In this document: positions 2,434 to 62,205 of the stretch, piece by piece | Numbering within the stretch: the first letter of the stretch is position 1 | Layout of the letters: each line of letters opens with the position of its first letter | From: Clostridia bacterium | Lineage (GTDB): Bacteria; Bacillota; Clostridia; TANB77; CAG-508 | Direction: 5' to 3' | DNA: 64,000 nt | Assembly (NCBI GenBank): GCA_045531335.1 | Contig: JAZSDU010000034.1 | Location: forward strand, 20,314-84,313 | Translations under genes and position numbers: made by a program | Notes under the pieces: generated by a model | What the model saw: the letters and a program-made list of their open reading frames with translations, nothing else | What the model was told of the DNA's origin: nothing | Databases searched by the model: none

Positions 2434-2468
2434 CTGTAGGGGTCGCCCAAGAGTGCGACCCCTACAAA
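2434..2468. repeat. REP-like palindromic unit (GTAGGGGTCGC-loop-GCGACCCCTAC)
   Basis: 11-bp perfect stem beginning with GTAG. Same family as the GTAGGGG repeats elsewhere in the window. Confidence 0.7.
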
Positions 2469-2504
2469 CAAAAAAACAAATCGTTTACGATTTGTTTTTT
2501 CTAA

Positions 2505-2768
2505 CTATGCTAATGTATTTAATTTTTTTGCTAAATTTGATTTCTTTCTAGATGCAGTATTCTTTTTGATAACACCTTTTGAGCAAGCACCATCTATTTT
2601 TTTAACAGCATCTTTAAATAAGTTTTCAGCATTTTCTTTATTACCTTCTAATACAGCAGCTTCAAATTTTTTAACAGCTGTTTTATATTCAGATTTAATC
2701 ATATTATTTCTTAATGTTTTTTTCTCAATAACATCAACTCTTTTTATTGCAGATTTAATATTTGGCAT
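2505..2768 (-). CDS. rpsT: 30S ribosomal protein S20
   Basis: MPNIKSAIKRVDVIEKKTLRN... matches the S20 family. Terminator hairpin at 2470-2500 (aaacaaatcgtttacgatttgtttttt). Confidence 0.9.
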   Translation of the reverse strand: MPNIKSAIKRVDVIEKKTLRNNMIKSEYKTAVKKFEAAVLEGNKENAENLFKDAVKKIDGACSKGVIKKNTASRKKSNLAKKLNTLA

Positions 2769-2861
2769 ATGTTTTGCACCTCCTTAAAGTCAAAATAAAT
2801 TTCACTTTGTATATTTTAACACGTAAATATAAATTTTGCAAGTAAAATTAAAAAAAAGCAT

Positions 2862-3066
2862 AAAAAAAGGCTCCTCCTTGAGAGGAAAGCCTTTAACGCC
2901 ATAAACAAATGACGTTTATTTGAGAGGAAATTTCCCCTCAACCTGACCTGTTTGTCATGCTATACCATAGGAATTGGGTGGGTAGCCCGAGCAAAGCAAT
3001 AAAATCTACAAACAGGTCAGTATATAAACTGCTTACCTAATAGGTAAGTCAGGTTACATATGATAT
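2862..3066 (-). ncRNA. Candidate ~200-nt structured small RNA of unknown class, transcribed divergently from dgt and ending at an intrinsic terminator upstream of the rpsT promoter
   Basis: On the minus strand there are nested perfect stems (CTGACCTGTTTGT...ACAAACAGGTCAG, AACCTGAC...GTCAGGTT, CTTACC-tatta-GGTAAG, ATAAAC-gtcattt-GTTTAT). These are followed by the hairpin AAAGGCTTTCCTCTCAAGGAGGAGCCTTT and a T7 run. The locus has no coding potential. Confidence 0.3.
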
Positions 3067-3167
3067 AAATTTTAATATAAAAGTATAAAAAAATCAAGAT
3101 GTAAAAAAATGTAAATTTATTTACAAGTATATTATTTACATATATAATAATGTACAGAGGTGGATAA

Positions 3168-4322
3168 ATGAAAATTTTAGAAAAGGCAAAAGAGAATATG
3201 TTACTTAGAGAAAATATTTTATCTGAGTATGCATGTAAATCACAGGATGCAATACTATTAACAGAGGATAAGGAAGATATAAGACCTATATTTTTTAGAG
3301 ATATAGATAGAATTATCCATTCACTTGGCTATACTAGATATATAGATAAAACACAGGTTTATTCATTTACGAAGAACGACCATATAACTCATAGAGTATT
3401 ACATGTACAACTTGTATCTAAAATTGCAAGAACTATTGGGAGAAGCTTAAGGTTAAATGAAGATTTGATTGAAGCAATAGCTCTTGGACATGATATAGGC
3501 CATAGTCCTTTTGGACATAAAGGAGAAAAATATTTAAATGATATATGTATAAAAGAAAACATAGGTTATTTTTATCATAATGCACAAAGTGTTAGAGTAT
3601 TAAAAGAGTTAGAAAAATTAAATATAAGTTTGCAAACATTAGATGGAATACTTGCTCACAATGGAGAAATACTTATAAATGAATATAAATATGATAAAGA
3701 TAAAACAGAGCAAGAATTTATTACTGACTTACAGTCTACATTTATAAAGGAAGACTATAGTAGAAAAATAATACCTATGACATTAGAAGCATCTGTAGTA
3801 AGGTTATCTGATGTAATAGCATATATAGGTAGAGATATTGAAGATTCAATAAAAATAGGAACTATAAGAAGAGAAGACGTACCACAAAGTGTAACTAAAG
3901 TATTAGGAGATAATAATTCTAAAATAGTAGATACTTTAATTAAAGATATAATAATTAATAGTTTTGGAAAACCATATTTGACTTTTTCAGATGAAGTTTT
4001 TAATGCTTTAATGGGGTTAAAAGATTGGAATTATAAAAATATATATGCATCTGATGAAGCAAATAAAAATCAAGATATAGTGGAAAAACTTTTTTATAAA
4101 TTGTATTATTGTTATTTAAATAAAGTGCAAAATTGGGATTCGGAAAGTAATAATCTTTCACAATCAGAGAAAAACTTATTTGATTTTGTAGAGCAAAAGG
4201 ATGATGATACAGATATAAAAAGGGCAATAATAGACTATATTGCAGGTCAAACAGATCAATACTTTTTAAAAGAATGTGTAGAACATGTAAGAGATATTGA
4301 TATAGAGCAATTATATAAATAA
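3168..4322 (+). CDS. dgt: dGTP triphosphohydrolase-like HD-domain phosphohydrolase
   Basis: HD motif (HVQLVSKIA...GHDIGHSPFGH). Preceded by the -35/-10 promoter TTTACA-17-TATAAT at ~3119-3149. Confidence 0.85.
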   Translation: MKILEKAKENMLLRENILSEYACKSQDAILLTEDKEDIRPIFFRDIDRIIHSLGYTRYIDKTQVYSFTKNDHITHRVLHVQLVSKIARTIGRSLRLNEDLIEAIALGHDIGHSPFGHKGEKYLNDICIKENIGYFYHNAQSVRVLKELEKLNISLQTLDGILAHNGEILINEYKYDKDKTEQEFITDLQSTFIKEDYSRKIIPMTLEASVVRLSDVIAYIGRDIEDSIKIGTIRREDVPQSVTKVLGDNNSKIVDTLIKDIIINSFGKPYLTFSDEVFNALMGLKDWNYKNIYASDEANKNQDIVEKLFYKLYYCYLNKVQNWDSESNNLSQSEKNLFDFVEQKDDDTDIKRAIIDYIAGQTDQYFLKECVEHVRDIDIEQLYK

Positions 4323-4399
4323 ATTTAACGATATTACATAATTATTCTTTAAATGGAATATACTACATATAAATTGTATATAACGATTGGAGAATTATT

Positions 4400-60914: not shown

Positions 60915-61012
60915 TTACATTTTTTCCAATAAACAATAAAATTATGTATTTAATGAAATTTTATCAAAAAACAGTTGTAAAATAATGAATACGTGATATA
61001 ATACTAATAGTC

Positions 61013-61040
61013 AAAGAAAGTCAAAGTCAAAAAAGGAGAT
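61013..61040 (+). promoter_or_regulatory. CtsR operator: three tandem heptads AGTCAAA-gaa-AGTCAAA-GTCAAAA upstream of ctsR
   Basis: Matches the (A/G)GTCAAA direct-repeat CtsR box. Confidence 0.65.
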
Positions 61041-61050
61041 GTAATAAGAG

Positions 61051-61501
61051 ATGAAAATAACAGATGTAATAGAAGAATTTATTAAAGAATTATTTGATGA
61101 GGAACAAGAATATATAGAAATACAAAGAAATGAACTTGCAGAAAGATTTAATTGTGTACCATCTCAAATAAACTATGTAATATCAACAAGATTTAGACCA
61201 TCGCAAGGATACTACGTAGAAAGTAAACGAGGCGGTCGGAGGACATATTAGAATAAAAAAAATAAATGTAACTAAAAGTAATTATTTAATGCATATAATA
61301 ACAAGTATGGGAGATAAAATAACATCTAATGAAGTAGATATATTTATAAGCAATTTTTTATCATATGGAATTATAAATAAAACTGAAGCGAAACTATTAA
61401 AAGTTGCAACAAGTGATAATGTTCTTATTGTTCCTTTAGAATACAAAGATATTCTAAGAGCAAGTATATTTAAAAATATGATTTTAAATTTAATTGAGTG
61501 A
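61051..61501 (+). CDS. ctsR: Class III stress gene repressor CtsR. The frame is broken at the in-frame CGG at 61237-61239 and continues in the +1 frame.
   Basis: ...VESKRGG | GGHIRIKKINVTKSNYLMHIITSMGDKITS... Skipping C61237 restores the conserved KRGGGG(Y/H)IRI glycine loop exactly. Confidence 0.85.
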
Positions 61502-61580
61502 TTGGGGACAGTCCCTATGCGACATTTTGTCGCATTTGGGACATATCTTTAAAAATAATTTTATAAGGAGTTGATAGTTT

Positions 61581-62150
61581 ATGCTATGTCAAAAGTGTAA
61601 TAAAAATGAAGCGAATGTAAAATATACAGAAATTATAAATGGTGAGAAAAAACAAATGATGCTATGTGAAGAATGTAGCCACGAGTTAGGATTAGATAAT
61701 ATGAATTTTAATATGCCAATTGATTTTTCTAGCTTTTTTGGAGGATTATTAGGAGAAGACGAGTATAATTCACCGGAATTTATGCCATTATTTCAAACAG
61801 TGAAAGAATTAAAATGTAGCAATTGTAATATGACATATGATGATTTTATAAATCAAGGAAAACTTGGCTGTGAAGAATGTTACAATGTCTTTTCAAATAA
61901 AATAGATAGCATTTTAAAAAGAATACATGGAGATAATAAACATTTAGGTAGAAAATCTGTAGGGTCAGGCAATGCATCTGCCAAAAAAGAAAAAAATGTA
62001 GGGGCGGCTATTAGCCGTCCGCAAAAAGAAACGACACAAGAAAACAAATTAGAGCAGTTACAAAAGGATTTAAAAAAAGCAATTGCAGAAGAAAGATATG
62101 AAGACGCAGCAAAAATAAGAGATGAAATTAAATCACTAGATAAAAAATAA
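61581..62150 (+). CDS. mcsA: McsA (zinc-finger and UVR-domain activator of McsB)
   Basis: Two CxxC pairs x2 and a C-terminal UVR motif. A REP unit (61997-62027) is embedded in-frame in the linker. Confidence 0.85.
   Translation: MLCQKCNKNEANVKYTEIINGEKKQMMLCEECSHELGLDNMNFNMPIDFSSFFGGLLGEDEYNSPEFMPLFQTVKELKCSNCNMTYDDFINQGKLGCEECYNVFSNKIDSILKRIHGDNKHLGRKSVGSGNASAKKEKNVGAAISRPQKETTQENKLEQLQKDLKKAIAEERYEDAAKIRDEIKSLDKK
61997..62027. repeat. REP single unit inside the mcsA coding sequence (GTAGGGGCGGCtattaGCCGTCCGCAAAAAG, translated in-frame as NVGAAISRPQK)
   Basis: Same GTAGGGGCGG...CCGCAAAA unit type as 48469 and 51886. A sister unit lies at 62159-62192 (GTAGGGGCAGcaatCTGCCGTACGCAAAAT) between mcsA and mcsB. 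Confidence 0.75.
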
Positions 62151-62205
62151 TGCAAACCATGTAGGGGCAGCAATCTGCCGTACGCAAAATAAAGAAACAG
62201 ATAGA

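Follow-up and report, generated by a model that had tools for sequence, protein, structure and literature searches.

A dense family of GTAG-led palindromes in a clostridial genome: probable REP elements, with a small tyrosine transposase as their likeliest enzyme

Short GC-rich palindromes that open with the tetranucleotide GTAG recur throughout a 64,000-nt stretch of a Clostridia bacterium genome (GTDB lineage TANB77; CAG-508; assembly GCA_045531335.1, contig JAZSDU010000034.1, positions 20,314 to 84,313, forward strand; here called the window), raising the question of what they are and which enzyme could have moved them. A preliminary description, made from the letters alone, had likened them to repetitive extragenic palindromes (REPs) and bacterial interspersed mosaic elements (BIMEs) and had pointed to a transposase gene in the window, tnpA at 34743, as a candidate for the cognate REP-associated tyrosine transposase (RAYT). 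We consider it likely that the repeats are REPs, many of them arranged as inverted doublets of the kind known as BIMEs or REP doublets forming hairpins (REPINs), and that the enzyme best suited to act on them is a small RAYT of ∼160 amino acids (aa) encoded elsewhere in the genome, not the window tnpA.

The heptamer GTAGGGG occurs 28 times on the two strands of the window, a 22-fold enrichment over the 1.26 ± 1.24 occurrences expected from dinucleotide-preserving shuffles (maximum, 5). Site-by-site reading revealed a GC-rich hairpin 3′ of every match except that at 17565, which lies inside a coding sequence without a hairpin and was set aside as a chance match. We counted 27 intact units at 19 loci, comprising 8 inverted doublets with their tags outward, 10 single units, and 1 double-foot hairpin; one further unit, at 61959-61982, has decayed. 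The “about 19 copies” of the preliminary description correspond to these loci, and its division into singles and inverted doublets with GTAG-led hairpins stands. Its explicit list gave 15 of the loci and missed those at 15561, 26228, 51690, and 51803. Among the single units, seven are short and intergenic, two have long inserts (51690 and 51803), and one lies in frame within mcsA (61998), so that 26 of the 27 intact units are intergenic. All 27 are short GC-rich stem-loops (20 to 40 nt) that leave a terminal GTAG unpaired, and the doublets, together with one three-unit cluster (51690-51911), show the dimer and cluster organization of the GTAG-tagged REP superfamily.

Each unit runs from GTAG through a hairpin whose foot is GGG/CCC to a G(C)AAAA tail, and two classes can be told apart. 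In class A, GTAG precedes a hairpin of 22 nt, in which 8 bp close a 6-nt loop or 9 bp close a 4-nt loop; G and an A-rich tail follow. Class B (15561, 26228, 61998, and 62161) has a 19-nt hairpin composed of GGGCGnnn, a 3-nt loop, and nnnCGTCCG, with a conserved G·T pair that becomes G·U in RNA. GTAG is invariant in 86 distinct family members, and the foot and the loop cytosine C15 (consensus loop, TTCCAC) are invariant or nearly so; the base 5′ of GTAG is mostly T, and a subset carries the lead TTGCAAAYRTT. These 86 units, from the window and from loci fetched from other genomes, were chosen solely by the pattern GTAGGGG-N16-CCC, which leaves five inner stem pairs free to vary. In the resulting alignment, which pools paralogous copies from many genomes, standard pairing occupied 94% of pair cells versus 71.6% in shuffles, and double-sided changes numbered 159 versus 55.7. 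The covariation score was 0.544 versus 0.139 after shuffling; none of 500 shuffles scored as high, and sliding the partners by 1 to 3 columns gave at most 0.154. All five free pairs covary, so the stem is kept by compensatory changes. Rfam at gathering thresholds gave no match anywhere in the window, and the repeats thus do not belong to a curated RNA family; ARAGORN likewise predicted neither tRNA nor tmRNA across the same sequence.

In the doublets, a TCGGG-type unit is paired with a CGAGG-type unit, and the doublets fold as one long hairpin (z of −6.9 to −10.8 in DNA and RNA folds). Those at 17285 and 40120, which lie 23 kb apart in opposite orientations, are 97.3% identical over 74 nt, spacer included (17285-17358 versus the reverse complement of 40120-40193), and their similarity runs ∼45 nt past one end. 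This bears out the earlier remark that some copies exceed 95% identity over 75 bp, as does the lead ATTGCAAACGTT, common to 38113 and 47644, the remark that two copies share an extended lead. With two inverted REPs, a short spacer, a single long hairpin, and copying as a unit, the window doublets have the makeup of REPINs. Some of them (in 17240-17400 and 19314-19470) are also enclosed by an outer inverted repeat, TGTGTAAACAATTG ... CAATTGTTTACACA, a palindrome that could be a favored target or could belong to a larger composite element of ∼150 nt.

We scanned species-representative genomes with the pattern GTAGGGGYSRGGTTCCACCCYSRCCC, which covers the TTCCAC-loop variants only, and recovered the family in more than 108 stretches of other genomes. 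Most of the matches listed come from uncultured Clostridia (ruminant and chicken gut metagenome-assembled genomes [MAGs], Oscillospiraceae, Syntrophomonadaceae, and Candidatus Scatomorpha), and others come from Planctomycetota (contigs of 1.8 to 2.0 Mb), Acidobacteriota, Aminicenantes, Elusimicrobia, Desulfovibrionaceae, and Oceanospirillaceae. Among these matches, an identical 26-mer is found in genomes of 24% to 70% GC. The nearest of them have genes 70 to 77% identical to those of the window, whose own genome is not on the list; all relatives compared here are MAGs or metagenome contigs.

Using tblastn, we located a small RAYT of ∼160 aa in 8 of the 108 REP-bearing stretches listed (0.70 Mb; two of the eight as partial matches). 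The protein belongs to the same family as Escherichia coli TnpA-REP (4ER8; E = 6e-5), and in an alignment the homologue P0122 keeps all of the residues that contact GTAG in that enzyme, W94, Q95, E100, H101, and R104 (PMC6006769) (LWQRNYYEHIIRN versus IWQPRFWEHAIRN). Gene neighborhoods tie REPs of this type to the clade of small RAYTs. Family REPs flank the gene in the classical layout in a gammaproteobacterial stretch (L002), and the gene itself contains an in-frame inverted REP pair in four Bacillota stretches (L035, L055, L079, and L091) and in five more loci fetched by protein identity (L110, L113, L115, L119, and L120). This in-gene pair occupies two fixed loops that bracket the HuH motif. 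Two further loci (L060 and L117) have one REP inside the gene and others just outside, and the P0232-type RAYT of L117 goes with class-B REPs. The RAYT genes of L119 and L120, on metagenome contigs of 27 to 28% GC, carry GTAGGGGCGAGGTTCCACCCTCGCCCG twice, identical to the commonest unit of the window. The reading frame of the tag varies between homologues (VG[AGE].. or CRG..; PL[HQ] or APT), and therefore the constraint acts on the DNA; tag peptides are present at both sites in 74 of 114 RAYT homologues and at neither in 20. As a separate observation on these two contigs, the small RAYT gene lies immediately upstream of recG (L119, 1651-3064; L120, 120-1541), and recG is called as at least two open reading frames (ORFs) in both.

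The REPs turn over between close relatives. A metagenome contig (L122) that is syntenic with the window from 53.7 to 64 kb and 89 to 99% identical to it differs in REP content, by presence or absence or by a change of subtype, at all six REP-bearing sites compared, which argues for ongoing turnover and provides the insertion polymorphism that the preliminary description had proposed to look for. Three sites hold REPs only in L122: the mcsB-clpC spacer (32 nt and REP-free in the window) has, just after the mcsB stop codon, a two-unit cluster resembling window positions 51803-51911; the spacer between an rluD-like gene and a gene of the major facilitator superfamily (MFS) has a doublet; and the ctsR-mcsA spacer has two units. 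At the remaining sites, both sequences have REPs of different kinds. The mcsA-mcsB spacer holds one class-B unit in the window and two class-A units anchored at the same GTAG in L122, the secG-gerAC spacer holds a TCGGG/CGAGG doublet in the window and a doublet of another subtype in L122, and the mcsA linker holds a class-B unit plus the decayed unit in the window and a single class-A unit, with the frame kept, in L122. McsA orthologues at 70 to 87% identity contain various REP-derived peptides or none. Other relatives also differ: in L012, a small membrane-protein gene is followed by a doublet, the window having only a terminator there, and L121 (86% identical) lacks any intact REP across 13 kb, with a REP-like peptide retained in its McsA.

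Single units have a marked orientation. All 10 in the window have GTAG on the + strand, which is the strand of nearly all window genes and, by its steadily positive GC skew, the leading-strand sequence. Similarly, GTAG is on the coding strand in 27 of 29 single units that lie between two codirectional genes of low-GC loci. Four window singles (15561, 22602, 48471, and 62161) lie inside operons with the start or stop codon of a neighboring gene within ∼25 nt, e.g., in the gaps before ybeY and between mcsA and mcsB. The bias would place the active strand on the lagging-strand template, where enzymes of the TnpA-REP/IS608 type act (PMC3333891), and by analogy the REP enzyme may act there as well. 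Selection acting at the transcript level would produce the same bias, and the two causes are confounded in the window. Once transcribed, copies within operons would yield highly stable RNA stem-loops, and mRNA processing or decay could plausibly be affected. The units do not look like intrinsic terminators, as their G(C)AAAA tail lacks a T-run. A terminator tool called none of the nine units in 15000-27000, a window-wide rescan called a single unit (48294-48315), and a terminator-like site occurs within 150 nt at only 5 of the 19 loci. The preliminary description had placed the copies almost exclusively in 3′ intergenic regions near terminators; the intergenic part largely stands, apart from the one intact and one decayed unit in frame within mcsA, and the proximity to terminators stands only in part.

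Could the Y1 transposase of the window itself mobilize the REPs? The gene tnpA (34743-35495) is the sole Y1 gene in the window. Its 250-aa product matches Pfam Y1_Tnp (1e-13), scores 79.8 bits against the NCBIfam REP_Tyr_transpos cutoff of 80, and has HuH and Y...NP catalytic motifs (NHVHLL and YIHKNP), and the sequences that bracket it contain TAGGGACGCCC, which loosely resembles the GTAGGGGCG...CCC of a REP. These bracketing sequences are, however, 44-nt terminal inverted repeats (TIRs; TAGGGACGCCCTTCAAAAT...) at 34496-34539 and 35488-35531, with no other copy in the window, and are not GTAGGGG REPs. Aligned to TnpA-REP, the protein has Y, R, S, E, and T at W94, Q95, E100, H101, and R104, i.e., none of the five GTAG contacts. 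A homologue at 53% identity (P0013) has TAGGGAC palindromes on its flanks, within 18 kb of 29%-GC DNA that contains no GTAGGG, and phmmer with the window protein detected no relative of it in the ORFs of the 108 stretches listed as bearing REPs. Thus, the nomination of tnpA as the cognate RAYT is not supported, in view of its TIRs, its missing contact residues, and the surroundings of its homologue. The protein instead fits a TIR-associated tyrosine transposase (TIRYT; subclass 2.1), for which no REPs have been found (PMC3733652 and PMC6006769). Like the TIRYTs of TIRtrons (Di Nocera et al. 2013, PMC3733652), it is a longer Y1 protein with a C-terminal extension and long TIRs that contain a GGGAC-type motif, with no REPs adjoining; these TIRs are distinct from the GTAG repeat family. 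Judged by such features, the window tnpA is probably not the enzyme that moves the REPs, and we regard that role for it as very unlikely.

The genome might also have lost its RAYT, leaving an orphan REP population whose copies only decay or recombine. No RAYT is seen in the window, decayed units are present (38113, 56647 with ATAG, and 61959), L121 lacks intact REPs as described above, and REP-containing genomes without tnpA-REP have been mentioned (PMC6006769). Such a relic would, however, sit poorly with doublets that are nearly identical down to their spacers in opposite orientations 23 kb apart, with REP content that is unlike at every site compared with a relative whose flanking genes are so similar, and with the matching RAYT encoded by related low-GC contigs, and we consider it improbable. 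Another explanation, that the repeats are non-mobile structures selected by the host as RNA stabilizers, attenuators, or protein-binding sites, draws on the co-orientation of single units with transcription, the units close to start or stop codons inside operons, and the stable RNA hairpins in which the class-B G·T becomes G·U. But the units lack a T-run and are not terminators, and they occur in frame inside coding sequences, in both orientations as doublets, and at nonorthologous sites in relatives; the identical 26-mer across phyla of such different GC contents and the association with a RAYT clade also speak against this explanation, which we rate as highly improbable. A host role acquired after insertion is possible and compatible with mobility. 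Finally, the inverted ends and the length (70 to 110 bp) of the doublets could recall miniature inverted-repeat transposable elements (MITEs) of a DDE-type insertion sequence, with the doublet as two TIRs, or one might think of a CRISPR array or integron attC sites. We give this group almost no credence: single units are common, and no target-site duplications or direct repeats flank the doublets, whose flanks instead extend the palindrome. The preliminary description had rightly dismissed CRISPR and attC, given spacing that ranges from 20 nt to 12 kb, mixed orientations, and units that vary; no cas or integrase gene was present among the 30 window ORFs scanned, and Rfam gave no match.

We therefore favor REPs served by a small RAYT. 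REPs would be small non-autonomous elements that fold, as single-stranded DNA, into a hairpin with an unpaired 5′ GTAG. By analogy with characterized enzymes, a RAYT of the HUH-Y1 type would recognize the folded top strand, with GTAG as a guide, and would then cut and rejoin the DNA through a 5′-phosphotyrosine link. Binding, cutting, and rejoining of this kind are established for E. coli TnpA-REP and IS608. The source genome would carry a small RAYT with the residues WQ..EH..R and an internal GTAGGGGCGAGGTTCCACCCTCGCCC pair, and the small RAYT seen in relatives is, from its residues and gene layout, most likely a better candidate than the window tnpA. The invariant GTAG 5′ of a covarying hairpin, the occurrence as singles, inverted doublets, and clusters, and the polymorphism between relatives uphold the REP/BIME-like reading first proposed. 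Several observations weigh on the other side. The small RAYT is not in the 64-kb window, so its presence in this genome is presumed; it scores 56 to 71 bits against the NCBIfam REP_Tyr_transpos cutoff of 80; and the REPs inside RAYT genes often differ in subtype from nearby dispersed REPs. A simple model of one subtype per enzyme was dropped, as internal and nearest subtypes are often mixed. In addition, L110 and L113 (28% GC, 20 kb each) have a RAYT with an intact internal REP pair and almost no dispersed REPs, indicating that REP load varies greatly between enzyme-carrying genomes.

A bolder idea is that REPs are exchangeable cassettes at fixed, GTAG-anchored landing sites, where the enzyme would swap hairpins site specifically, possibly including those in its own gene, instead of being limited to insertion and excision, and that a compact gene-plus-REP unit spreads across phyla. 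It is suggested by different REP subtypes at exactly the same position at three orthologous sites of two close relatives (the mcsA-mcsB spacer, the secG-gerAC spacer, and mcsA codon ∼140, with the frame kept) and by the in-frame REP pair that brackets HuH in the small RAYT gene. We put it forward as a tentative and rather doubtful proposal.

How does this system compare with those already described? The GTAG REPs reported by Di Nocera et al. 2013 are from Proteobacteria, Cyanobacteria, Chloroflexi, and the Planctomycetes-Verrucomicrobia-Chlamydiae (PVC) group, with Firmicutes unmentioned (PMC3733652), and Bertels et al. 2017 associated REPINs with proteobacterial RAYTs of Groups 2 and 3, noting only Group 1 in Clostridia (PMC5581495). 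Both agree with the earlier remark that no comparable system had been characterized in clostridia. The type of system itself has been described, as subclass 2.4 of Quentin et al. 2018, which has three G-C foot pairs, double-foot REPs, and in-frame REP insertions in the tnpA-REP gene (PMC6006769). Literal repeat sequences gave only unrelated primer matches in a full-text literature search, and the accessible text of the Quentin 2018 supplement contains no Clostridia or Firmicutes entries.

By its described features, rather than by those authors' HMM, the small RAYT of relatives looks like a Group 4/subclass 2.4 enzyme (PMC6006769 and PMC5581495): its gene has in-frame REPs near HuH, the protein lacks a C-terminal extension, and E100 and the other four contact residues are kept. 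The REPs agree as well, with 5′ GTAG at the hairpin foot, three G-C foot pairs, and a double-foot variant (2436-2465). Subclass 2.4 was reported to be abundant in Cyanobacteria and Bacteroidetes, with a scattered presence in other groups, and we found no description from Clostridia; the in-gene REPs here, unlike those described, form a regular inverted pair in two fixed loops, and the HuH-to-Y distance is ∼64 aa versus a reported median of 88. Compared with E. coli REPs and BIMEs (Ton-Hoang 2012, PMC3333891; 4ER8), the window repeats likewise consist of GTAG and an imperfect palindrome, occur as singles, pairs, and clusters, show compensatory stem changes, and alternate two subtypes in doublets (TCGGG with CGAGG here and y with z in E. 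coli). They differ in a shorter hairpin (22 or 19 nt) without a large bulge, in the presence of REPs inside the RAYT gene and not only beside it, and in a density of ∼1 REP per 2.4 kb in a 27%-GC host versus ∼1 per 8 kb in K-12. The REPINs of Pseudomonas fluorescens (Bertels and Rainey 2011, PMC3116915) share the long hairpin of two inverted REPs with a short spacer and the copying of whole doublets (97% identity here). Those are, however, Group 2/3 RAYT systems that are restricted to Proteobacteria and vertically inherited, whereas the present REP family spans several phyla, which implies strong enzyme constraint or horizontal spread.

Thus, the kind of system is known, and what is new is a poorly covered host phylum in which all three subclass 2.4 features are seen. 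To the extent that the text of those papers was available, it does not contain the regular inverted pair inside the gene, the near identity of REP sequences across phyla, or the subtype swaps at one site between close relatives. REP/RAYT systems have been studied almost entirely in Proteobacteria, and their dense, apparently active occurrence in a 27%-GC lineage of spore-forming gut clostridia widens the known host range, while the same family in many Clostridia MAGs and other phyla argues against purely lineage-specific REPs. The family offers sharp strain-typing markers and a known cause of MAG assembly breaks. With an enzyme of 160 aa and a substrate of 26 nt, this system provides a compact test case for Y1 hairpin recognition and exchange, and the in-frame peptides in McsA and RAYT show that REPs also reshape proteins.

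The individual loci of the window are as follows. In the double-foot REP (2436-2465; GTAGGGGTCGCCCAAGAGTGCGACCCCTAC), GTAG and CTAC occupy opposite ends of one hairpin (DNA fold, −14.1 kcal/mol; z, −7.0). The doublet at 17285-17358 has a TCGGG-type unit on the + strand and a CGAGG-type unit on the − strand, both with TTCCAC loops (DNA fold, −27.8 kcal/mol; z, −6.9; RNA fold, −50.5 kcal/mol; z, −8.4), and its opposite-orientation copy at 40120-40193 has CGAGG on + and TCGGG on −. Another subtype, with 9-bp stems and 4-nt loops, forms the doublet at 19354-19426, inside the outer palindrome described above, and TCGCA and ACGCA subtypes form that at 20537-20606. Both units of the TCGGG/CGAGG doublet at 38113-38183 are slightly decayed. 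The doublet at 47644-47717 is of the CGGGT/CAGGT subtype (RNA fold, −53.9 kcal/mol; z, −10.8), that at 48290-48365 is CGAGG/TCGGG, and that at 56601-56673, between secG and gerAC, is TCGGG/CGAGG with its second tag (56647) decayed to ATAG.

All single units are on the + strand. Those of class B lie in the 63-nt gap before ybeY (15561-15584), at 26228-26251, in frame inside mcsA (61998-62021), where the unit encodes VGAAISRP in the linker before the UVR motif, and in the 55-nt mcsA-mcsB spacer (62161-62184). Class-A singles are found 24 nt past a stop codon and 23 nt ahead of the next start (22602-22628), at 42402-42428 (GTAGGGGCGAGGTTCCACCCTCGCCCG, the commonest unit; DNA fold z, −4.0), and 17 nt before a femAB-like start (48471-48497; CGGAC subtype). 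In the same-strand cluster before ftsH, the unit at 51690-51767 keeps a normal foot (GTAGGGGTCGC...GCGACCCG), but its loop is replaced by 55 nt of structured sequence, an insert with no second copy in the window or the fetched loci. It is followed by a long-loop unit at 51803-51853 (GTAGGGGCG...CGCCC) and a class-A unit at 51886-51911, and the latter two have a copy in the mcsB-clpC spacer of L122. The decayed unit at 61959-61982 (GTAGGGTCAGGCAATGCATCTGCC; + strand) is a probable one, in frame inside mcsA and within a 39-nt segment missing in L122.

The Y1 gene forms a compact TIRtron in 34423-35615, and its 44-nt TIRs contain 20-nt subrepeats (CAGGGACGCCCTTCAAAWT). This 1.1-kb element lies in front of spoIVB between two ∼78-nt copies (34423-34500 and 35538-35615; 86% identical) that include a terminator-like hairpin and the first spoIVB codons; a duplication that long is unusual for a Y1 element. 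Directly downstream, spoIVB (35589-36708) can be read through only with two frame changes, of which one falls close to the catalytic GMSG[AS]P motif, and is either a pseudogene or affected by assembly indel errors. A second palindromic family, AAGGGGACAG(N)CCCC, occurs at 1987-2065, 5621-5637, 36830-36846, and ∼61505-61520 and fits the TIRYT TIR motif GGGGWSAS. Its member at 1987-2065, a 79-nt near-perfect palindrome, is 89 to 94% identical in two Clostridia MAGs (L085 and L040) whose genes are ∼70 to 77% identical to those of the window; it looks mobile and resembles a bidirectional terminator too.

Near the mcsA units, ctsR (61051-61501) appears as two ORFs because of a single surplus base in GGCGGTCGGAGGACAT; the usual CtsR sequence at this point is ...KRGGGGHIRI.... 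The same +1 frameshift was read in L122 (9443-9896), and the gene calls of L121 (4784-5237) are split alike, as judged from gene calls only. Either the frameshift is conserved, being programmed or tolerated, or the gene is a pseudogene common to these sequences.

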